Virus record (IMG/VR): IMGVR_UViG_3300044680_000064
Location: 9,632-73,631 of that record
Reading direction: 5' to 3' (one strand)
DNA length: 64,000 nt
DNA from: a virus
Taxonomy: Duplodnaviria; Heunggongvirae; Uroviricota; Caudoviricetes
Shown here: positions 2,295 to 35,492 of the stretch, piece after piece
Numbering within the stretch: the stretch's first letter is position 1
How the letters are laid out: every line of letters begins with the position of its first letter
Notes under the pieces: model-generated
Seen by the model: the letters and a program-made list of their open reading frames with translations, nothing else
Told to the model about the DNA's origin: nothing
The model's database searches: none
Position numbers and translations under genes: made by a program

Positions 2295-3074
2295 ATGGGA
2301 ACCAACAAGCGAAGCAAGGCCGCCACAAGGCTGACTCCAGAGCTCGAAGCGAAGATTCTTGAAACCCTGAACTCCGAAGAGTGGAAGAACCGCTCCACGA
2401 ACGCCATCTCCGCGCACCTCCAGTTGTCCTACAAAATAATCCGCACCGTTCGCACAAAGCACAATCTAAAGCCCAAACGCATCGAACTCGAACACGGCGG
2501 TCAGATGCGAGCCGGGCATATCGGCACGGACAAGGGCCGGCAAGAGCCGCTTACTATCCGCGAACGACAGCGCATGGAAGAGGCCGAGCCGATGGTTCAG
2601 AGACTGGCCCGCGGTGCCGCGAATGGCACCTTGAGCTATGACCAGCTGATAGACGTGGCGCATGACACAATCGAGATAGCGGCGCGCAAGTGGGATCCAA
2701 GTGAAGGCAGAGGCTGGATGACGTATGCGGGCAATGGCATCCGCATGGCGATCAAGCAGGCATTTTGGCGTCGGCGCCAGCAGCTCGAGGTCGAGCGAGT
2801 CTTTTCCGGCGACGACTGTGCCGAGAACCACATTGATGAGAAGTTCGAAGATGACAGGCGGGCGTTTTTGCGTGAACGAATTCGCGGACTGCCGCCACTT
2901 CCACGTCTGATATGCGAGAAGATCATCTTGCTGGCGAGCGAGGGGTGTCAGAGCAAGAAACCGGAGACGTTGGCGAAAGAGGTTGCCATGTTCTGGGATC
3001 GTTCGTTAGAATGGGCCAATCGACAAATCGAGATTGCACGACAACTACTTCTTCAAGGAGATTCCCGTGAGTGA
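2295..3074 (+). CDS. sigma-70 family RNA polymerase sigma factor
   Basis: Region 2-like WMTYAGNGIRMAIKQAF and a C-terminal HTH-like segment. The ORF track starts at 2274; ATG 2295 (MGTNKRS) is the chosen start. Confidence 0.65.
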   Translation: MGTNKRSKAATRLTPELEAKILETLNSEEWKNRSTNAISAHLQLSYKIIRTVRTKHNLKPKRIELEHGGQMRAGHIGTDKGRQEPLTIRERQRMEEAEPMVQRLARGAANGTLSYDQLIDVAHDTIEIAARKWDPSEGRGWMTYAGNGIRMAIKQAFWRRRQQLEVERVFSGDDCAENHIDEKFEDDRRAFLRERIRGLPPLPRLICEKIILLASEGCQSKKPETLAKEVAMFWDRSLEWANRQIEIARQLLLQGDSRE

Positions 3075-3486
3075 AACCAAGAGCAAGACTGCGGACAGCT
3101 TGGCCAAGCAAGCCGAAGCGATGGGTCTGACGGCCACGGCGACGCTCAAGGAGCCGAGCCCGGAGTCAGAGTTCGAGCGTAAACTGGCCTCTAATCCATT
3201 CGAAGGCGCACTTGTCGGTCGGCCAATCGGCAACATGCCGGCATCACCAGGCGCTGGCCTGTTGGGCGGTTGGTCGCCGGACGTTAAGCCAGGTCGCGAG
3301 GCGTTGATGTACCTTGAGGGCGGCGCGATCATGCTGCTCTACATCCCCGGCGATCTTGACGCCGACACCGTGCTGTCGTCAATTGGCAAGGATTACGCTA
3401 ATCGCTCGACTCAGCAGCGATTCAAGGGATTTCTCATTCCCGAACGATGCAGCGCCAGAATCTTCCATTCAGGCCGGCAGTCCTGA
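3067..3486 (+). CDS. hypothetical protein
   Basis: GTG start overlaps the sigma-gene stop. ORF 3034-3486. Confidence 0.3.
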   Translation: MSETKSKTADSLAKQAEAMGLTATATLKEPSPESEFERKLASNPFEGALVGRPIGNMPASPGAGLLGGWSPDVKPGREALMYLEGGAIMLLYIPGDLDADTVLSSIGKDYANRSTQQRFKGFLIPERCSARIFHSGRQS

Positions 3487-3501
3487 ACCGACAAGGAGTA
3501 A

Positions 3502-4107
3502 GTGATGCTGAACGGGCATGTCGTCTTGCACCTGTGGCGGGATGACGTCGATGACAAGTTCTTCTCGCTCCACTTCGAAACCGAGGGCGGCGAAGCGGTC
3601 GCGGTGAAGAAGCTGCGTGCCGCCGCGAACAAGCACCTGCACGAGCAGTTCGAGTTCAGGAGCTTGCGCTCATACGACATTCCGGACGGCCACGATGTCA
3701 CAAGCGATAATCCCGGCGTGCTGCGAGCAGAATATCCGCTCATGGGACCACCGGAACTTCCGCCGCCGCCGCCAACGGACGACGACGCTGACGGCGTGCT
3801 CGCTCCACCGGAGAACATGCAGGCGCCGGGTGCGGCCGGCATTCGGAAAGCCAAGGCGGAATCGCCAAAGCGGGCCGCGATCAACGGTGCTATGAAGCGG
3901 CTTGCCGACAACCCGCCAAAGGTCGAGATACAAAATATGCCCAAAACGTCTGGGCAACATATTTCCGTCGTATCATGTATACGGTGTGGCGGGGGCCACG
4001 ACGACCTTGCTTTGTACGCACTGAACAACGCGCCAGCGACCATCTCCGGCTGGGCGACCTGCCCGGAGACCGGCCAGCCCATGTTTGTTCGGACTGAAGT
4101 GATCTGA
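3502..4107 (+). CDS. hypothetical protein (201 aa), proline-rich middle
   Basis: Uninterrupted ORF. A PPPPP linker separates two halves. Confidence 0.4.
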   Translation: MMLNGHVVLHLWRDDVDDKFFSLHFETEGGEAVAVKKLRAAANKHLHEQFEFRSLRSYDIPDGHDVTSDNPGVLRAEYPLMGPPELPPPPPTDDDADGVLAPPENMQAPGAAGIRKAKAESPKRAAINGAMKRLADNPPKVEIQNMPKTSGQHISVVSCIRCGGGHDDLALYALNNAPATISGWATCPETGQPMFVRTEVI

Positions 4108-9614: not shown

Positions 9615-10729
9615 TTCAAGATGTTCTGTTCAGCATCACGCCACAACCCGCGCAATTGATTCGACGTCGTGGTCAAACCGTACCTCTTTCTGGCCTCGAA
9701 CAATACGGAACTGAATGGCGTTGCGTCTTTGATGCGCAACGCGAATTCCTTCTGGCTGGTCAAGGCCGCATGGTCGATCCACAACTCAAGTAGGTGAGCG
9801 TACTCTGTCTGTATCTTGGCCTTGAGCTTGTAGAACGCCTCAGAGCATTCCGTGAAGTAAACAAGCAATTCCGATTCCTCTCCCGTTAGCACAAACGGAA
9901 GAAGGTGCTTTGGATTGAATAGGTTGTCGCCTTCGCCGCGCATGCGGTGGAGAGCCAGGTAAGTGGGCGACTTGATCTTGAATCGCCGCCCCCACTTATC
10001 GCGGATGACGACGCCCTCGAACGTTGGATCGGTCTTGCTCTCCTCGGCGAGCCACTCCTGAATCTCTTCAATGCTGTTGAACTGGAATTGCTCAACTTGG
10101 TTCAAAAGCGGGCTACCGTGGTCTGGATGAAGCTCGTGAATCGGGATCTCTTCAACACCTCGGAATGTAGATAGCAGGTAAACCTTTGGCTCATCATATT
10201 TGCGGACGATTTTGTTCCACGGCGATACAAACTCGCAAACGTAAGTGCAGGCCGGATTAAGCACATTATTGATATACGCGGCAAAATACTCGAATCCCAT
10301 CGCCTCGCGGATCGCCTCTTCCCACGTCTTGTCGCATCCATTCCCGATTACGCCGTCAGCGAATGTGCCACGGGTGTTGATCCGCCACTGCCCCTTGTAG
10401 TTGTACAGCAGGACGAGCGAGCCATCGACCTTCTCGGTGCACGTGAAATAGCTGAAGTCGAATTCGGCCATCTCGGTCTGGAACTCACCCCAGTTGAAGA
10501 ATCGCGAAAAGCCCTTGGCGACCACGTTCCAAGTATCGAGCTCGAGGACCAAGCCGCGGCACTCTCGCACGATTGGATTGGTCTTCGGGCTGTCTATTTG
10601 GTCGTAGTTCAGGATGACCAGAGGCAAATCTATATGCAACAGGTTGCTGATGCCGAGCTCAGCTTCAAGATCGCCAAGCGTCTTGCCGCTGCGCAGGTAG
10701 AGCTGAACGTTCAAGAGTCTGTCGGTCAT
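9599..10729 (-). CDS. ATP-dependent RNA ligase, T4 Rnl1-like
   Basis: Motif I TEKVDGSLV. ECRGLVLELD and SRFFNWGE resemble T4 Rnl1 ECRGIMFEMD and EKFFNLNE. Confidence 0.7.
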   Translation of the reverse strand: MTDRLLNVQLYLRSGKTLGDLEAELGISNLLHIDLPLVILNYDQIDSPKTNPIVRECRGLVLELDTWNVVAKGFSRFFNWGEFQTEMAEFDFSYFTCTEKVDGSLVLLYNYKGQWRINTRGTFADGVIGNGCDKTWEEAIREAMGFEYFAAYINNVLNPACTYVCEFVSPWNKIVRKYDEPKVYLLSTFRGVEEIPIHELHPDHGSPLLNQVEQFQFNSIEEIQEWLAEESKTDPTFEGVVIRDKWGRRFKIKSPTYLALHRMRGEGDNLFNPKHLLPFVLTGEESELLVYFTECSEAFYKLKAKIQTEYAHLLELWIDHAALTSQKEFALRIKDATPFSSVLFEARKRYGLTTTSNQLRGLWRDAEQNILKWLKS

Positions 10730-14561: not shown

Positions 14562-14885
14562 ATGTCCGGTACGTTTGGGGCTTTACGTATAGAGACGTTG
14601 GAGTGTCTGTTCGACACGCTCATCATCAAGCGCGATGCCGCGCCCGACGAGACGCCTGGCGGCGTTCTGCTTCCCGACGACGCGAAGGAAAAGCCGAAGA
14701 CCGGCACCGTCGTTCGCTGTGGGCCTGGGCTGATTCACGAGAAGACCGGGGAGCGCATTCCGATGGGCGTTTCGGTCGGTGATCGAATCTGCTTCAAGCC
14801 ATTCATTGGCCAGACGTTTCAGGACGCGGATGGCAAGTCGTTCGAGATTTCGAAGATCGAGCAGGTGTTGGCAAGAATCGAGTGA
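14562..14885 (+). CDS. groES: co-chaperonin GroES (Cpn10) homolog
   Basis: GroES pattern L..L.DTLIIKR...ETPGGVLLPD.AKEKPKTGTVV..GPG...GDRICF. AGGAG RBS 8 nt upstream of ATG 14562. Confidence 0.7.
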   Translation: MSGTFGALRIETLECLFDTLIIKRDAAPDETPGGVLLPDDAKEKPKTGTVVRCGPGLIHEKTGERIPMGVSVGDRICFKPFIGQTFQDADGKSFEISKIEQVLARIE

Positions 14886-14944
14886 CGCATGGGCTTACGC
14901 AAATCAGCAGATGGCATCCTTGACGATTTGGAAGGGAAAGAGTA

Positions 14945-15172
14945 ATGATTGTCAACGCCTATATCCAGTCCGGCCGCATGGTCGCATCGGCATACACAAA
15001 GCCAGCCATGCGCGAAAAACGCGCCGTTCTCTTATGGCATGACACACGAGATTGTGGCGGCGTCTATGATTTGCTGCAAAGCTGGATGCGTGCAGTCTGC
15101 TTGGAGCAAGGGCCGACCGCGTGCGTCTCATTTCGGATTGAACCACCTCCGCTGATATCAGACAATGGTTGA
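14945..15172 (+). CDS. hypothetical protein (75 aa)
   Basis: ORF. Confidence 0.3.
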   Translation: MIVNAYIQSGRMVASAYTKPAMREKRAVLLWHDTRDCGGVYDLLQSWMRAVCLEQGPTACVSFRIEPPPLISDNG

Positions 15173-15179
15173 GTGCGCG

Positions 15180-15189
15180 GTAGTAGAAT
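15180..15189 (+). promoter_or_regulatory. GTAGTAGAAT variant of the promoter motif
   Basis: 24 nt upstream of ATG 15213. Confidence 0.35.
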
Positions 15190-15212
15190 GACGGAAACGC
15201 AAGGAACAAGAT

Positions 15213-15638
15213 ATGCTTCTCATCAAAGATTTCCCGGTTTTTCGTGCAAACTTCGGCGTGTCGCTTGCTGGCTTTGATCTCAAGGAAATCGTTGGGCGAT
15301 TCCCAGAGCAGGCTCCGGGCTCGGTGCCGGTTGTCACAAAGTGCCATGCGACAATCGGCTTTGTGGATTCGCTGCGATACGCTGATGACGGCTCTGTGCT
15401 GGCCCATTTGCAGATTGAGAATTGCGGCGAGCTATTGGCGACAGTTTTGGCAGGTTGCGCCGATTTCAGCGGCTTTGTTCCAAATCCTGAAGTCAAGATT
15501 CTGCCGAAGGCGCACTTGAGCAAGCTGCAAATCTTGGAAGCTCCAAAACCGATTGGTGGGATGAAAAGCGGGAAGCCGCATCCTCCGAGCCCTAGCGACG
15601 ATTTTACCATGCCAGCGAGAAGTTCTGCAAGCAGTTAA
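15213..15638 (+). CDS. hypothetical protein (141 aa)
   Basis: ORF. Confidence 0.4.
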   Translation: MLLIKDFPVFRANFGVSLAGFDLKEIVGRFPEQAPGSVPVVTKCHATIGFVDSLRYADDGSVLAHLQIENCGELLATVLAGCADFSGFVPNPEVKILPKAHLSKLQILEAPKPIGGMKSGKPHPPSPSDDFTMPARSSASS

Positions 15639-27366: not shown

Positions 27367-28479
27367 ATGCCAAGGCCGACACTTTTTGAGCATCCCAAGT
27401 TTCACAGGCTCGTCCATGAGCTAAAACTTCCCAGGCCATACGTCCTTGGTCTTCTGGAGTTCCTTTGGCGTCCTGGATACGCATCTGGGAACCCGATTAT
27501 TGGTGACGCAATCGACGTTGAACTGGTCGCCGAATGGCCGGGAACGCCGAACGCACTTGTAACGGAACTCGAAAAACTCCGTTTCATCGACCGTTTGGAA
27601 GATGGTCGTTATCAGATTCATGACCTCTTCGACCACGCTCCGGAGTATGTTTCGGAGCGAAGAAAGCGCGAAAACGAACGCAAAGTGGATAAGACTTGCG
27701 CTTTCTGTTCCGAAATATACCGAAACTCAGACCCAAGATCGACTTACTGTTCATCAAAGTGCAGGTCTGCGGCATGGAGAAAGTCGAATTGTGACGGAAA
27801 TGACACGGAAAATCACGGAAAGAACGAACCGAGCGCAGGTGACGGAACGCAAACGGAAAATCACGGCGCTCTTACTCCCGCGCGCGCTCGCGCTCTTAAA
27901 GAAGAAGAAATACATCTTGCTGCGCAAGATGTCTGCTCGGAGCCGATCAAAGCATCGGCTGCCGAGCCGATGGCTGCCGGCGAGTCCCAAGAGTCGTCCA
28001 AGGTGGTGATGTCTTTCCCGGTGGTTGGCAAGAAGCCAAATAGCGGTTTGACGGAATGGCCTCTCACCGAGGCCAAGGTGGCGGAGTATCAAGAATCTTT
28101 TCCTGGAGTTGACGTGATGGTAGAATGCCGAAAGGCTCGCCAGTGGTGCATTGACAACCCAACGAAACGAAAGACTGTCCGTGGAATGCCAAAGTTTCTC
28201 AGCGGCTGGCTCGCGCGGCAACAAGACCGCGGATCGACTCCAGCGCTTCAAGTCCAAGCGACACCGAAACCGCAAGGCCCGAATGGTCCAGCGCCGGCAG
28301 GCAGATTTCTGACTCCAGATGAGGAAAAACACTATTCGGGAAAATTGGACGAAAATACGCAGCTCCCCTACTGGAAAATCTGCACATGGCCTGGGTATAA
28401 AGAAAAATGCACTTGGCCCTGGTGCGTCGAGCAGCGCCGAAAACTTGCCGAAGAAAATCAAAAAAGAGACGTAGCATGA
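27367..28479 (+). CDS. putative replication initiation or replisome-organizer protein
   Basis: C-terminal TEWPLTEAKVAEYQESFPGVDVMVE...NPTKRKTVRGMPKFLSGWLARQQDR motif, typical of phage replication proteins. CxxC finger in the middle. Confidence 0.45.
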   Translation: MPRPTLFEHPKFHRLVHELKLPRPYVLGLLEFLWRPGYASGNPIIGDAIDVELVAEWPGTPNALVTELEKLRFIDRLEDGRYQIHDLFDHAPEYVSERRKRENERKVDKTCAFCSEIYRNSDPRSTYCSSKCRSAAWRKSNCDGNDTENHGKNEPSAGDGTQTENHGALTPARARALKEEEIHLAAQDVCSEPIKASAAEPMAAGESQESSKVVMSFPVVGKKPNSGLTEWPLTEAKVAEYQESFPGVDVMVECRKARQWCIDNPTKRKTVRGMPKFLSGWLARQQDRGSTPALQVQATPKPQGPNGPAPAGRFLTPDEEKHYSGKLDENTQLPYWKICTWPGYKEKCTWPWCVEQRRKLAEENQKRDVA

Positions 28480-31370: not shown

Positions 31371-32636
31371 GTGGAAGACCTGAATTTTCGTCGTATCGCT
31401 GCGATTATCGCGGCCGTGGTGATTGGAATTATTATCGTCGTCGCGGCGTTCTCAGTTGCGACCCACGTTGACGCGAGCGAGCTCGTCGTAAAGCAAAGTC
31501 CAGTGGCCGGCGACCTGACGTGGTACACCAGTCCTGGGATGAAGTACCAAGGATTCGGGAAGATCACGAAGTACAAGCGGCGATCGCAATTCTGGTTTTC
31601 GAGCAAGAATGACCAAGGCAAGCCGGAAGACGAGTCGATCGAGATTCGATTCAACGATGGCGGGCACGCGAACATTTCTGGCGGTATCTCGTGGGAGATG
31701 CCACTCGACGATGAGCATTTGACCGCGTGCCACCAAAAGTTCGGGTCGCAGGAGGCAATCGAGAAACAGCTCATCAAGACGGTTATTCAAAAATCCGTCT
31801 ATATGACCGGGCCGCTCATGTCTTCGACAGAGAGTTACGCCGGCCGTCGCAATGAGCTGTTGCAAATTATCGAAGACCAGATTCAGAACGGCGTATATCT
31901 GACCAAGACCGTCGTGGAGGCGCAGAAAGACCCGATCACTGGAGTCGAGCGAAAGATCAGCGTCGTTCAGCTTGTCACAGGCCAAGATGGCAAGCCTCTT
32001 CGCGCTGAGGATTCGGCCCTCAAAGAATTTGGTATTCACGTTTTCAACCTCGCGATCAACGACATCAAGTACGAAGATCGAGTTGAAGAGCAAATCAAGC
32101 AGCAGCAGCAAGCGACGATGCAAGTTCAGCTTGCCATCGCCGAAGCGAAGCGCGCCGAGCAGCAGGTCATGACGACTCAGAAGGAAGGCGAATCTTCCGC
32201 AGCCAAAGCCGAGTGGGAGCAAAAGACGATCGCCGCCAAACTGGTTCAAGAAGCCAAAATGAAAAAGGAAGTTGCCGAGACCGAGGCGAACCAGAAGCTG
32301 CAAGTCGCTCAATTGGATGCCAAGGCAGCTGAAGAGTTTAAGAAAGCTGAAACTTCCCGCGGCGAAGGCGAAGCGAACCGTCGAAAAGCCGTGATGGCAG
32401 CTGACGGCGCACTAGAGAAAAAACTGGCCGCATGGGTCGAAGCACAGAAGGCGTATGCCGAGGCGATCGGCAAGGCAGGTGTTCCTCACATTGTCTTCGG
32501 AGCGGACGGGAAGGGCGGAGGCGCTTCGTCAGGAGTCCAACAGCTCATCGACATTTTGTCGGCCAAGACGGCGATGGACTTGGACCTGAACATGAAGGTC
32601 AAGAAGCCAGAACCGAAAAACGACCAGCAGCCTTGA
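31371..32636 (+). CDS. SPFH/Band-7 (stomatin/prohibitin/HflC-like) membrane protein
   Basis: N-terminal TM helix, then an SPFH-like core and a long coiled-coil, Lys/Ala/Glu-rich C-terminus. Confidence 0.6.
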   Translation: MEDLNFRRIAAIIAAVVIGIIIVVAAFSVATHVDASELVVKQSPVAGDLTWYTSPGMKYQGFGKITKYKRRSQFWFSSKNDQGKPEDESIEIRFNDGGHANISGGISWEMPLDDEHLTACHQKFGSQEAIEKQLIKTVIQKSVYMTGPLMSSTESYAGRRNELLQIIEDQIQNGVYLTKTVVEAQKDPITGVERKISVVQLVTGQDGKPLRAEDSALKEFGIHVFNLAINDIKYEDRVEEQIKQQQQATMQVQLAIAEAKRAEQQVMTTQKEGESSAAKAEWEQKTIAAKLVQEAKMKKEVAETEANQKLQVAQLDAKAAEEFKKAETSRGEGEANRRKAVMAADGALEKKLAAWVEAQKAYAEAIGKAGVPHIVFGADGKGGGASSGVQQLIDILSAKTAMDLDLNMKVKKPEPKNDQQP

Positions 32637-32684: not shown

Positions 32685-35492
32685 ATGGCGATCCCGCAGA
32701 AAAAACTCGATACACTTCGTCTCATCATCGCGGATCCAAAAACGGACCCGAAACTTCGCGCCGATGCTGAAGCATGTCTCGTCCGTGAGGCCACATTCGA
32801 AGAACGCTGTCCGTGGGCTTGCTACGAAGGCAGGCCGATCGAGTACGCGGAGCGCTTTCACGGCTTCCGCCTCACGCAAGATCAGAAGAAGATGTGCACG
32901 TATCTTCTTCAGCCGCCATATCGACTGCACGTTGACTCGGCCCACGGAGTTGGCAAATCGTGGCTGATGGCACTTCTGACAAACTGGTTTTTTGATACCT
33001 ACGATCCAGGCGTCGCGATCACCACCGGCCCGAGCGACAAATCGGTTCGCCAAAACATCTGGGGTCGCGTTCGTGAGATGCGTCAGGACATCAAGAAGAA
33101 GATCGCCAACTATCCATTCGCGATGATGCCGAGCAGCCCCGAGATGAAGACTGGAGAGTCGCATTGGGCCGTTGGCCAGGTCGCAGCGAAAGCCGAAGCA
33201 TTCCAGGGGAAACACTGGGAATATATGTTCTTCGGATTCGACGAGTCCGAGGGCTTGCCGGAGATTTATTTTGAGACCACCACGTCGATGTTCAAGTCGA
33301 ATGGGAAGCATTTCTGGTTCTCGATTTGCAATCCGCTATCGACCAGCTCTCCGGTGTATCTGAACACGCAAAAGATCGACTACGTCGGCCAAATGCTTTG
33401 GCGGCTCATGTCCGTGTCGGCGTTGAATCACGACAACATCAAAATCCAGATGAACGATGAAGGCAACGACACCGGCGTTGACCCGCCGATACCAGGCGCT
33501 GTGACGCTCGACCAGATTGACGACTGGATCACGGAGTACGGCTGCGACAAACTTGGACAAGGCGAGAAGCCTCAGCCGGGCGACTTCCAGTGGCGACCCA
33601 AGAAAACTAACGCGTGCCCGGAATGCGGATTGATATTTCAAAATCCAGTGGGCGGAGTTTTCCCGAAGCACGGGCAATCGCCGACCAAGCCTGATGGCTG
33701 CGAAGGAACTGGGCTGATAGCCGGTAATTGGTGGCGCCCGTCAGGGCTTGCCGAATCACGCATTCTTGGACGGCGCCCGAGCCACGGCGTCGAGGGTATT
33801 TGGAGCTCTGCGCTCTGGGAGTATTGCGAGAATCGGACAGAAGAGACTGCGATCCCATTTCCGCTTGACGAATTCCCGGAGTTCGGCTGCTTTGTCGCAG
33901 GAACTCTTGTGGAAACAAAATCTGGTCCTGTGCCGATAGAACAACTGAATGCTGGCGACATGGTTCTGACGCGGCAGGGATACAAGCGAGTGAAGGCGGC
34001 TTTTTGCACCGGGATACAACAAACACACACCCTGGTCTGCGAAAACGGACAAACTCTGACTGGGACAGGTAATCATCCAATTTGGGACGGCCACGGGTGG
34101 AAATCTCTTGGTTCGTTGACGAATCATGATATAATTTACACATGGAAACCAGCGAATACGAATACATTGAATATGACGGAATTGTTTGGCATAGAAAACC
34201 GCAAGCGAAACGGATATGGGAGCGAAACTATTTCCGCGGATACATTCCAAGACGCGGCGATATTCCCAGACGAAAACACTATCCGCTCCATCGGTATGTT
34301 TGGGAAAAATTCAACGGGCCGATTCCGAAAAGCCTCTGCATCCACCATAAGGACGAAGACACGTCCAATAACGACATCACTAATCTCGAACTACTCACGC
34401 GATCAGAGCACAGTAAGATTCATTCGGACAACTGGCGAGTCGTCCGAACAAGTGAATGTGAATTTTGCGGAAAAGAGTATCAGCACATTAGTGTGCCGTC
34501 TCGATTCTGTTCCAACAAATGCAAATGCGCATGGCGAAGAAAAAACAAAGTTGACAATGAGACCAGAACATGCAGCGAATGCTCAGTTTCATTCTCGTGT
34601 TGCAAATACGAACCAGCCACAACTTGTTCCCGTTTCTGTACGAACAAGAAATCTTGGAAAACTCGAAGAGGTCTACAACATAACAGTTGAGGATTGTCAC
34701 GAGTATTTCGCCAATGGTGTCCTCGTTCATAATTGTGACGTAGCTCGCTTTGGAGATGATGCAACTGGCTTCCACGGGCGCTGGGGCGGCGTCTCGCTGG
34801 TTCACGATCAGAAGTACGGATGGGACACAAACCAGATCGCCGGCCGACTCAAGGAAATGTGCGACGAGATGGCGCAGTTTGCAAACGCGGTGCGATTAGC
34901 AGCAGCGGTCAAGGCCGGCACGGAAAAGAACTTCAAGCCGTTCTATCCGCATCAATTTCCAGTCAAGATCGACTGCACTGGCGGCTGGGGCGGCGGCGTG
35001 CGCGACAAACGAGACAATTACAACTTCATCGAGATCAACTCATCCAGCACGGCCTATGCGGACTTGAAATATCCGAACATCCGTAGCGAGCTTTGGTTCC
35101 AAGTTGCCGAGAGGGCGCGGATGGGTCTTCTTGATTTGTCGCGGCTTGATGAGGCCGATCGGCAGGCGCTGAAGATCGAAGCGCTAGCGGTCAAATATTC
35201 GTTTGATTCGGCTGGAAGAAAGGTCGTCGAAAAGAAAGATGAGACGAAGAAAAGACTCAAACGATCTCCGGACAATGCCGACAGTTTTTGCCTAGCATTT
35301 TTGCATCACGGCCAAGCAGTTCCGCACATGGTCGGTCAAGAAATGACATCATCGCGCGGCGGACATGAAACTCTGGCGGCGAAGTTCGGAACGCTAGGGC
35401 GAGGCCCAAACTCAACTCGTGATCGCCACACGTTCGACTATGGCGCACAGCCGAAACCGGAACGCCGGTTCAAGACACTTGGAAGGCGTTAG
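32685..35492 (+). CDS. terminase large subunit containing an intein
   Basis: ATPase Walker A SAHGVGKS and Walker B FFGFDESEG. C-terminal nuclease motifs DVARFGDDATG, IDCTGGWGGG, SPDNADSF. Interrupted by Hint blocks. TAG stop. Confidence 0.8.
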   Translation: MAIPQKKLDTLRLIIADPKTDPKLRADAEACLVREATFEERCPWACYEGRPIEYAERFHGFRLTQDQKKMCTYLLQPPYRLHVDSAHGVGKSWLMALLTNWFFDTYDPGVAITTGPSDKSVRQNIWGRVREMRQDIKKKIANYPFAMMPSSPEMKTGESHWAVGQVAAKAEAFQGKHWEYMFFGFDESEGLPEIYFETTTSMFKSNGKHFWFSICNPLSTSSPVYLNTQKIDYVGQMLWRLMSVSALNHDNIKIQMNDEGNDTGVDPPIPGAVTLDQIDDWITEYGCDKLGQGEKPQPGDFQWRPKKTNACPECGLIFQNPVGGVFPKHGQSPTKPDGCEGTGLIAGNWWRPSGLAESRILGRRPSHGVEGIWSSALWEYCENRTEETAIPFPLDEFPEFGCFVAGTLVETKSGPVPIEQLNAGDMVLTRQGYKRVKAAFCTGIQQTHTLVCENGQTLTGTGNHPIWDGHGWKSLGSLTNHDIIYTWKPANTNTLNMTELFGIENRKRNGYGSETISADTFQDAAIFPDENTIRSIGMFGKNSTGRFRKASASTIRTKTRPITTSLISNYSRDQSTVRFIRTTGESSEQVNVNFAEKSISTLVCRLDSVPTNANAHGEEKTKLTMRPEHAANAQFHSRVANTNQPQLVPVSVRTRNLGKLEEVYNITVEDCHEYFANGVLVHNCDVARFGDDATGFHGRWGGVSLVHDQKYGWDTNQIAGRLKEMCDEMAQFANAVRLAAAVKAGTEKNFKPFYPHQFPVKIDCTGGWGGGVRDKRDNYNFIEINSSSTAYADLKYPNIRSELWFQVAERARMGLLDLSRLDEADRQALKIEALAVKYSFDSAGRKVVEKKDETKKRLKRSPDNADSFCLAFLHHGQAVPHMVGQEMTSSRGGHETLAAKFGTLGRGPNSTRDRHTFDYGAQPKPERRFKTLGRR
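33888..34733 (+). mobile_element. intein (282 aa) inserted at the start of the TerL nuclease domain
   Basis: Block A CFVAGTLVET, block B TGTGNHPIW, blocks F/G VYNITVEDCHEYFANGVLVHN followed by the C-extein Cys (CDVARFGDD). Confidence 0.75.
34142..34690 (+). CDS. HNH homing endonuclease encoded inside the intein in an alternate frame
   Basis: HHKDEDTSNNDITNLELLTRSEH HNH motif plus Cys-rich C-terminal zinc-ribbon repeats. Frame differs from the TerL/intein frame. TGA stop 3 codons upstream and TATAAT at 34130-34135. Confidence 0.6.
   Translation: METSEYEYIEYDGIVWHRKPQAKRIWERNYFRGYIPRRGDIPRRKHYPLHRYVWEKFNGPIPKSLCIHHKDEDTSNNDITNLELLTRSEHSKIHSDNWRVVRTSECEFCGKEYQHISVPSRFCSNKCKCAWRRKNKVDNETRTCSECSVSFSCCKYEPATTCSRFCTNKKSWKTRRGLQHNS

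Follow-up and report, generated by a model that had tools for sequence, protein, structure and literature searches.

The gene for the large subunit of the terminase (TerL) in a 64,000-nucleotide stretch of DNA from a virus of the Caudoviricetes (IMG/VR record IMGVR_UViG_3300044680_000064, positions 9,632 to 73,631 of that record, hereafter the window) very probably carries a mobile element that combines two genes in one. Our analyses identify this element, on its sequence features, as a contiguous class 1 intein, predicted to splice, that interrupts a divergent phage terminase at its nuclease active site, and they reveal within it, on the same strand and in the +2 frame, a complete gene for an HNH homing endonuclease. 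An out-of-frame endonuclease in an intein is an already known, supposedly rare arrangement, and the element in the window is a variant of it. A terminase intein alone would be routine, and the value of this one lies in the nested gene.

The terminase gene and its intein

The terminase precursor is encoded by an open reading frame (ORF) at 32685-35492 on the plus strand (935 aa, stop included in the coordinates), which on its sequence matches is a divergent phage large terminase. The extein-only protein, from which the intein has been removed, matches the terminase large subunit family PHROG 2 (E 8.6e-18, residues 59-597), and a profile of intein-free homologs matches the solved TerL nuclease domain 8dkr_B (E 6e-7), pairing PeiG-C-DvArlGdD with kriG-F-DVADDGED and sPDalDa with SPNIADS. 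Both matches bear out the host gene named in an earlier note on this DNA, which had been made from the letters alone. A Pfam search of the extein-only protein returned no match, indicating that this TerL family is divergent. Searching 5.8 billion proteins for homologs of the terminase yielded five real ones besides the window's own protein, four of 598-687 aa (P0003-P0006) and one of 829 aa (P0002), and a blastn search of the gene against cultured phages gave no match. The columns that are invariant in alignments A1 and A4, namely G90, K91, D186 and E187 in the N-extein and D403, A405, G408, D410 and S579-P580-D581..D584 in the C-extein, constitute the GK, DE, G-x-D-x-A and SPDxxD motifs of an ATPase part and a C-terminal nuclease part.

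The N-extein (32685-33887, plus strand, 401 aa) comprises the ATPase domain, with a Walker A-like HGVGKS and a Walker B-like FGFDESEG, and extends through ...PLDEFPEFG. The C-extein (34734-35492, plus strand, 252 aa and stop) opens with the +1 Cys (34734-34736) and the nuclease Asp (34737-34739) of CDVARFGDD and contains the SPDxxD motif. Another assembly of this locus, Logan SRR35360315, shows no difference over 4,808 nt. In both the JGI and the Logan assemblies the locus is called as one gene encoding a 935-aa 'hypothetical protein', which is the single oversized product that the earlier note had expected of an automatic caller.

The intein occupies 33888-34733 of the plus strand (282 aa) and is assigned to class 1 by its Cys1 and His-Asn ends, a delimitation supported by Pfam matches, by presence or absence at the same site in homologs and by GC content. 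Its translation begins with CFVAGTLVET, contains LTGTGNHPIW and ends with VYNITVEDCHEYFANGVLVHN, and a Cys codon comes next. The N-terminal Hint subdomain (33888-34154, plus strand) includes block A (33888-33926, CFVAGTLVETKSG) and block B (34056-34085, LTGTGNHPIW, in which TGNH is the TxxH), while the C-terminal Hint subdomain (34611-34733, plus strand) includes block F (34671-34709, VYNITVEDCHEYF) and block G (34710-34733, ANGVLVHN). All the catalytic residues are present, namely Cys1 (33888), TGNH, the His-Asn pair (34728-34733) and the +1 Cys (34734), and the segment matches Pfam Hint_2 (E 1.5e-9) and Intein_splicing (E 7.4e-9, above the gathering score) as well as PT-HINT. The motifs and the Hint_2 and Intein_splicing matches agree with the previous claim that a 935-aa TerL ORF contains all Hint blocks in frame, and the proposed excision proved exact, since removing 33888-34733 joins ...PLDEFPEFG to CDVARFGDDATG... 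and leaves 653 aa.

Comparison of the exteins with intein-free terminases, a check that the earlier note had suggested, gave gap-free alignments across the junction for P0003-P0006, in which ...PEIG/CDVAR... is contiguous (slashes mark insertion sites throughout) and the insert is absent. P0002 carries a homologous insert at the same site, and the +1 Cys is native in three of the four intein-free alleles. With the intein removed, the junction DNA of the window would read ...GAGTTCGGC/TGTGACGTAGCT..., likewise written ...CCGGAGTTCGGC/TGTGACGTAGCTCGC.... The insertion lies one residue ahead of the invariant Asp in the G-x-D-x-A strand that opens the nuclease domain, and the alignment of PeiG-C-DvA with kriG-F-DVA of 8dkr places it at the first catalytic motif of that domain, as had been claimed. 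In TerL nuclease domains, which have an RNase H-like fold, the Asp of this first strand is a metal-binding catalytic residue. Judged from these alignments, the intein interrupts the nuclease active site of TerL, and an indirect argument for splicing in the window can be drawn from an essential TerL whose catalytic strand is split by the insert. The GC content of the intein is 0.46, compared with 0.55-0.56 in both exteins and in the window, and this difference of 9-10 points fits a relatively recent foreign origin.

In an AlphaFold model of the intein, residues 1-94 and 247-290 have a pLDDT of about 90, and the two confident halves superpose on the Ssp DnaB, Npu DnaB, gp41-1 and Mtu RecA mini-inteins with target-normalised TM values of 0.75-0.89 (Foldseek). 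Residues 95-246 (pLDDT about 30) correspond to an in-frame linker of 152 aa (34155-34610, plus strand) that is rich in T, S, N and R, has pLDDT values below 50 throughout and contains no Pfam domain in frame. The model thus predicts that only the two ends of the intein form the Hint domain and that the middle is disordered. The disordered, filler-like character of this middle is explained by its being the shadow translation of the nested HNH gene.

The nested HNH gene

The nested gene (34142-34690, plus strand) encodes 182 aa followed by a stop and has its own ATG, in frame +2 (equivalent to -1) relative to TerL and the intein. The whole ORF lies inside the intein, between the splicing blocks, and the TerL frame is free of stops throughout. 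On sequence and model comparisons, it is an intact homing endonuclease gene of the HNH_3, I-HmuI-like type, whose product is presumably active. The earlier note had read the locus as a plain intein; this was correct as to the intein but incomplete, as it missed the complete HNH gene in the +2 frame. Its product has no gene call on record.

The predicted protein displays the motifs HRYVWE, IHHKDED, NNDITNLELL and EHSKIH together with two Cys4 zinc-ribbon-like motifs, and it matches Pfam HNH_3 (PF13392, E 9.3e-19) and the HNH endonuclease family PHROG 15471 (6e-27, profile positions 29-176 of 183). In an alignment of the window sequence with 32 free-standing homologs of about 200 aa (33 sequences), the window copy keeps all the invariant HNH columns (H50, H68, H69, N77, N81 and H90) and the eight invariant Cys of two CxxC...CxxxC zinc-ribbon-like motifs. 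The AF2 model of the protein reaches a mean pLDDT of 90.8, and its best solved fold is I-HmuI (1u3e, probability 1.0, E 5e-3), a relationship recovered by the fold search alone, the sequence search against the PDB having returned no meaningful match. At its 3' end, the HNH gene shares about 27 codons with the DNA encoding the structured C-terminal Hint strands.

Distribution of the intein family

Four whole inteins used as queries against IMG/VR identified 416 confirmed relatives, and the best 80 were examined together with L029 and the window (82 loci). All HNH ORFs in this set (84/84) lie on the same strand, at offset +2, within a long open host ORF. Because ranking by whole inteins favours conserved middles, the scan was repeated with Hint-only mini-intein queries, which gave 490 relatives, and the best 79 new loci were examined. 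About 50 of them were full-size inteins, with an HNH at +2 in about 50/50 and none in frame, at +1 or in antisense; some 30 others were true mini-inteins of 116-190 aa, two of which bear decayed +2 HNH remnants. An HNH-only search gave six matches, of which two are free-standing and the other four lie at +2 inside terminase inteins of greater divergence. Every endonuclease-bearing relative recovered, at more than 130 loci and in phage TJE1, has a +2 HNH within an open host frame. The two mini-inteins with HNH-like remnants, L213 (2501-2908, 136 aa, E 1e-7) and L233 (2501-2947, 149 aa, E 3e-5), look like snapshots of endonuclease decay.

This regularity bears on whether the +2 ORF could be an artefact, that is, an ordinary in-frame HNH intein shifted by sequencing or assembly indels. 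In-frame HNH inteins are known in phages (bioRxiv 10.1101/2025.01.02.630785) and indels are possible in metagenome assemblies, but such an origin would require two compensating indels, with the TerL frame remaining stop-free over 549 nt. Moreover, the stop of the HNH frame four codons before the ATG prevents a single shift from joining that frame to the N-terminal Hint half, the second assembly is identical, and the +2 relation recurs in more than 130 independent loci and in the isolated phage TJE1. The probability left to an artefact is negligible, and we consider this explanation already effectively refuted.

Family members are inserted at several sites in TerL: before the first Asp, as in the window, after GLDFGFT, within SPD/xxDA and within DH/xDAxRY. 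Some host genes (L029, L083, L114 and L157) hold two copies, or one copy and a LAGLIDADG intein. The occurrence of intein-free TerL homologs (P0003-P0006 and L001-L028), of many insertion sites and of decayed copies is the distribution of a mobile element. Isolated phages with the same architecture, in each case without annotation of it, are Tetrasphaera phage TJE1, in its terL gene, Acinetobacter phage Highwayman and Rhodobacteraceae phage LS06-2018-MD07.

Several individual loci deserve description. Two separate family inteins per host gene were observed in L114, L157, L209, L211 and L170, mostly each with its own +2 HNH, and in L170 a mini-intein abuts a full intein. L029 (106-3876 of IMGVR_UViG_3300044511_000090) encodes a 1,256-aa TerL homolog with a LAGLIDADG-type intein in the ATPase domain and a second intein, CFVAGT...EYFANGILVHN/C, at the SPD/xxDA nuclease motif, which contains a 219-aa +2 HNH ORF (2955-3614). 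The TJE1 locus (L167, NC_019930 13379-15565) is annotated as terL and has its HNH match at 14773-15408, and both the intein and the HNH are missing from its annotation. The P0002 contig (JGI 3300047160, 35,006 bp) holds the only same-site relative of the window intein. An integrase gene lies some 3.6 kb upstream of this relative, and the interval contains DUF1580 and PriCT_2 primase genes. The flanking genes look cellular, suggesting that the element is integrated in a planctomycete-like genome, and the DUF1580 gene hints at a planctomycete host.

Free-standing homologs of the HNH gene were found just upstream of terS in Acinetobacter phage BP10 (L168, 2495-3136) and between terL and the portal gene in Pseudomonas phage PAE1 (L169, 2265-2882). 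The Highwayman homolog inside a terL intein and the free-standing one of BP10 form a possible donor-recipient pair for the model in which a homing endonuclease gene invades an intein.

HNH proteins assist terminases in some phages and are encoded beside terminase genes in HK97-like cos phages. The nested HNH could likewise be a packaging cofactor of the terminase, located within terL for co-inheritance, and it is consistent with such a role that the free-standing homologs adjoin terminase genes (BP10, PAE1) and that HNH proteins aiding some phage terminases are mentioned in PMC11855218. We nevertheless judge a cofactor improbable. Neither the intein nor the nested gene occurs in the closest TerL homologs (P0003-P0006, L001-L028), the unit of intein and HNH is found at many TerL sites and sometimes twice per gene, decayed copies exist, and both fold and family place the protein among homing enzymes of the I-HmuI type. 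Taken together, these features are more readily expected of a selfish element than of an essential cofactor.

Selection on the overlapping frames

When the window sequence was resampled synonymously with the in-frame peptide fixed, the HNH frame was open in none of 20,000 replicates (0/20,000), which contained 8.4 stops on average, and it must accordingly be regarded as a genuine coding frame. At the family level, the 84 nested ORFs (16,902 codons) contain no stop in the host frame, as against 1,699 in the third frame, and three free-standing HNH homologs have 4-12 stops in the equivalent frame. A stop in the host frame needs an NTA or NTG codon followed by a purine-initial codon, and the genetic code would therefore make +2 the alternative frame with the fewest stops.

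Mismatches between related family members fall on HNH codon positions 1, 2 and 3 in 445, 351 and 766 cases, respectively, and amino-acid identity is higher in the HNH frame than in the host frame in 13/13 family pairs. The excess at third positions, together with the higher identity in the HNH frame, reveals, at the level of the family, purifying selection on the endonuclease. The host frame, by the same comparisons, appears to be under essentially only the constraint to remain open. Long antisense ORFs (116-255 aa) were also noticed over the intein and HNH region, in the window (33607-34167, 33756-34250 and 34480-34830, minus strand) and in L110, L116, L120, L133 and L157, and are probably a by-product of doubly constrained, stop-poor sequence.

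Removal of the insert at the RNA level would give the open TerL frame a different meaning, since a group I or group II intron might carry the HNH ORF and leave the host frame open only incidentally. Enzymes of the I-HmuI-type and HNH_3 kind are usually intron-encoded or free-standing, and the open host frame in the window alone, with P about 0.3 given the HNH protein, would be compatible with such an intron. Searching 33500-35100 on both strands against Rfam, however, returned no family at E <= 1, group I and group II introns included, the insertion is bounded by canonical intein blocks (Cys1, His-Asn and +1 Cys) with a predicted Hint fold, and the host frame is open in all the family members. 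An intron is for these reasons highly improbable, and excision as an intein remains the explanation that we adopt.

Probable expression of the nested gene

Among the unique HNH ORFs of the first scan, the first start codon is an ATG in 72/76, at a median of 4 codons past the upstream stop, and the conserved HNH N-terminus follows directly after the start codon. The ATG start, the short distance to the stop and the conserved N-terminus rule out frameshifting and indicate independent initiation. A programmed -1 frameshift from the intein into the HNH frame had been considered as a candidate and was rejected on account of the TGA stop 4 codons before the ATG; it is further disfavoured by the lack of a slippery heptamer in the 12-nt interval concerned and by the family median, which is also 4 codons. 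A Shine-Dalgarno-like match is absent in 79% of the unique first-scan HNH ORFs, and no Shine-Dalgarno sequence occurs upstream of the HNH ATG of the window.

The window sequence upstream of the HNH start is tgacgaatcaTGATATAATttacacATG. It includes an extended -10-like element, TGATATAAT (TGaTATAAT, 34127-34135, plus strand), which is a perfect TGnTATAAT ending 6 nt before the HNH ATG, and whose initial TGA (34127-34129) is the last HNH-frame stop upstream of the ATG, 4 codons before it. A transcript from TGATATAAT at the usual distance would start at or next to the A of the ATG and would thus be a leaderless mRNA. An extended -10 at the identical 6-nt spacing is found in 11.6% of 112 unique family members, compared with 0.03% per position in the background, and the motif is restricted to a subfamily. 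In the 16 members with host-frame D-I, Ile is encoded by ATA in 15/16 (29% in exteins) and Asp by GAT in 14/16 (47% in exteins), and the spacer after the extended -10 varies freely. A two-hexamer sigma-70 promoter scan did not flag the TGATATAAT site, which has no -35, and the RNA around the HNH start is weakly structured to an unremarkable degree (z = +0.87). The pattern is suggestive of TGATATAAT as a candidate internal promoter for a leaderless HNH mRNA.

A second subfamily (L087, L092, L115, L124-L127, L136-L141, L146, L150, L151, L155, L160, L163 and L166) has a conserved cATAAAATaAAAAc stretch, which encodes N-H-K-I-K-T of block B in the host frame and ends about 15 nt upstream of the HNH ATG. 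In 15% of members the stretch is scored as a -10-like TAAAAT, and it may be a promoter or merely block B coding sequence.

Proposed homing cycle and its assessment

The two Hint halves, tethered by some 150 unstructured residues, would associate after translation and excise the intein, joining ...EFG to CDVARF..., so that the first catalytic nuclease strand would be rebuilt in a 653-aa terminase. The HNH enzyme is predicted to cut or nick the intein-free terminase alleles of co-infecting relatives, whose repair would copy the intein and the HNH gene together, i.e. homing. The enzyme is most likely made by independent initiation rather than by frameshifting, and two routes can be envisaged: a short leaderless transcript starting at the ATG and driven by the TGaTATAAT 6 nt upstream, or Shine-Dalgarno-free initiation by ribosomes on an AU-rich, weakly structured stretch of the TerL mRNA.

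A number of observations weigh against this reading and must be set beside it. Splicing, the activity of the HNH enzyme, its target and its expression are all properties that we infer from sequence. The window HNH lacks an internal segment of about 35-40 aa that is present in the free-standing homologs, and it could be impaired. Given the HNH protein, the TerL frame of the window alone would be open by chance with P = 0.23-0.30 under local codon usage, or in 2% of resamplings under uniform codon usage; this outcome is unremarkable and would follow from the frame geometry set out above, and it is the family that carries the argument for selection on the host frame. Its samples, in part, were obtained with matches that favour open frames, and the members are phylogenetically related, their counts not being independent events. 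One metagenome scan and one genome scan for same-site DNA relatives recovered distant family members only, which leaves recent mobility at this site a conjecture. As to expression, the -10-like motif is present in about 12-15% of the members, overlaps the host-frame D-I-I codons and lacks a -35, and the extended -10 consensus may not be the one that the host uses.

Some of these points would equally suit a fixed intein that is no longer mobile, which still splices but whose HNH is inactive or not expressed and is decaying toward a mini-intein. Mini-inteins of the same Hint family do exist, two of them with a decayed +2 HNH (L213 and L233), the window HNH is about 20-30 aa shorter than its free-standing homologs, with the internal segment gone, the same-site intein of P0002 is about as old as a divergence to 40% identity, and the ATG has no Shine-Dalgarno sequence before it. 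We nonetheless consider fixation unlikely, in view of a complete HNH ORF with all its invariant His, Asn and Cys residues and a confident model, of a frame that would be open by chance less than once in 20,000 (in-frame peptide fixed), of the purifying selection on the HNH frame in family pairs, and of a GC content 9-10 points below the flanks that fits a relatively recent foreign origin. A mobile element of two genes is the interpretation that we retain.

A broader proposal, which seems to us possible though doubtful, is that the element is one member of a large and old terminase-targeting lineage in which the splicing domain and the HNH have co-evolved as an obligate dual-coding unit, always at +2, with an internal extended -10 promoter giving rise to a leaderless HNH mRNA. 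If this were true, the dosage and timing of the nuclease would be uncoupled from terminase synthesis, and the lineage would constitute a natural system for the maintenance and expression of overlapping selfish genes.

Comparison with known systems

Out-of-frame endonucleases within inteins were reportedly first proposed by Gorbalenya in 1998. The non-canonical inteins described since include those of actinobacteriophages (Angelicase, Keitabear and Sedona) with an 'endonuclease VII-like HEN in frame 3', along with antisense LAGLIDADG and VSR inteins (Gosselin, Arsenault & Gogarten, bioRxiv 10.1101/2025.01.02.630785), and a cyanobacterial dnaX intein whose +2 ORF encodes a LAGLIDADG enzyme and evolves under purifying selection (Phillips et al., bioRxiv 10.64898/2026.09.14.751524); the authors of such papers call these architectures rare. 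The window element resembles them in having an endonuclease ORF between the splicing blocks but in another frame, with the same same-strand offset of +2 ('frame 3'), an in-frame stretch that has no recognisable fold and selection on the endonuclease frame, and the origin proposed for all of them is the invasion of a mini-intein by a free-standing endonuclease gene. It differs in its enzyme, an I-HmuI-like HNH_3 protein of about 180-220 aa with two zinc ribbons rather than an endonuclease VII-like, LAGLIDADG or VSR one, in its target, the TerL nuclease domain, and in its abundance in environmental viral contigs at many TerL sites. A tblastn search of cultured phages with the full intein found TJE1, Highwayman and LS06-2018-MD07 and did not retrieve the named actinophages, and on the basis of this non-retrieval the Hint family appears to differ from that of the actinophage 'endonuclease VII-like' inteins.

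Among mycobacteriophage proteins, TerL hosts inteins most often (Kelley et al. 2016, PMC5050341), with all seven insertion sites in the ATPase domain, and these inteins mostly carry an in-frame LAGLIDADG. Like them, the window intein combines an in-frame Hint domain, complete with Cys1, TxxH, His-Asn and +1 nucleophile, with a position at a TerL catalytic motif; unlike them, it interrupts the nuclease domain, a single residue ahead of the first catalytic Asp, and its own frame encodes no endonuclease domain.

A close parallel to the hidden gene as such is the ShiLan-type out-of-frame HNH in phage DNA methylases, which has no splicing domain (Arsenault et al. 2025, PMC11855218). Both are out-of-frame HNH genes in an open host ORF, without a visible ribosome binding site and with leaderless initiation proposed. 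The ShiLan insert is thought to stay in the host protein (PMC11855218), whereas a complete Hint domain surrounds the window HNH and should excise the shadow peptide. In fractured genes, a free-standing endonuclease gene lies between the halves of split inteins (Dassa et al. 2009, PMC2677866); the window shares with them a separately translated endonuclease gene between N- and C-terminal intein halves, yet those systems have two host ORFs and trans splicing, whereas here the host frame reads through, the intein is contiguous and splicing is predicted to occur in cis.

As for the enzyme, I-HmuI of Bacillus phage SPO1, an intron-encoded HNH nicking enzyme (1u3e), is the best solved match over 162 aligned columns. 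In both, the HNH core is preceded by a beta DNA-binding part at the N-terminus, although identity is only 18% and the TM is low (0.35, E 5e-3). The C-terminal DNA-binding part of the window protein differs in consisting of two Cys4 zinc ribbons, and the window enzyme is carried by an intein and not by an intron.

These findings are relevant, in the first place, to annotation, as gene callers report one oversized hypothetical protein in which the endonuclease is overlooked, the TJE1 record being a similar case. They also bear on the frequency of the arrangement, given a Hint family with hundreds of matches in environmental viral contigs in which all the examined full-size members have a +2 HNH. 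The homing cycle and the model of 'splicing domain first, endonuclease invades later' can both be studied on the data set formed by the free-standing relatives, nested copies, remnants and mini-inteins. The TGaTATAAT-N6-ATG arrangement is a testable hypothesis for the expression of hidden overlapping endonuclease genes, a question left open in PMC11855218, and a Hint domain that tolerates a disordered tether of 150 residues may be of help in intein engineering.

Neighbouring genes and other features of the terminase locus

The terminase of the window has an insertion of about 40 aa, KKTNACPECGLIFQNPVGGVFPKHGQSPTKPDGCEGTGLIAGN (33597-33725, residues about 305-347), which is unique to it among six homologs. 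The insertion lies between the ATPase and nuclease parts and shows a CxxC...C pattern, suggesting a small zinc-ribbon-like loop.

The neighbours of terL in the window are phage-like and include primase/helicase and exonuclease genes, among others. The gene directly upstream (31371-32636, plus strand) encodes a 421-aa Band_7/SPFH-like protein (PHROG 11908, E 9e-53; Pfam Band_7), an unusual neighbour for a terminase, with no recognisable small terminase gene between it and terL. Further upstream, 27367-28479 (plus strand, 370 aa) matches a phage replication-initiation family (E 6e-14) and has a weak match to an HNH-endonuclease PHROG at residues 92-158 (E 7e-6).

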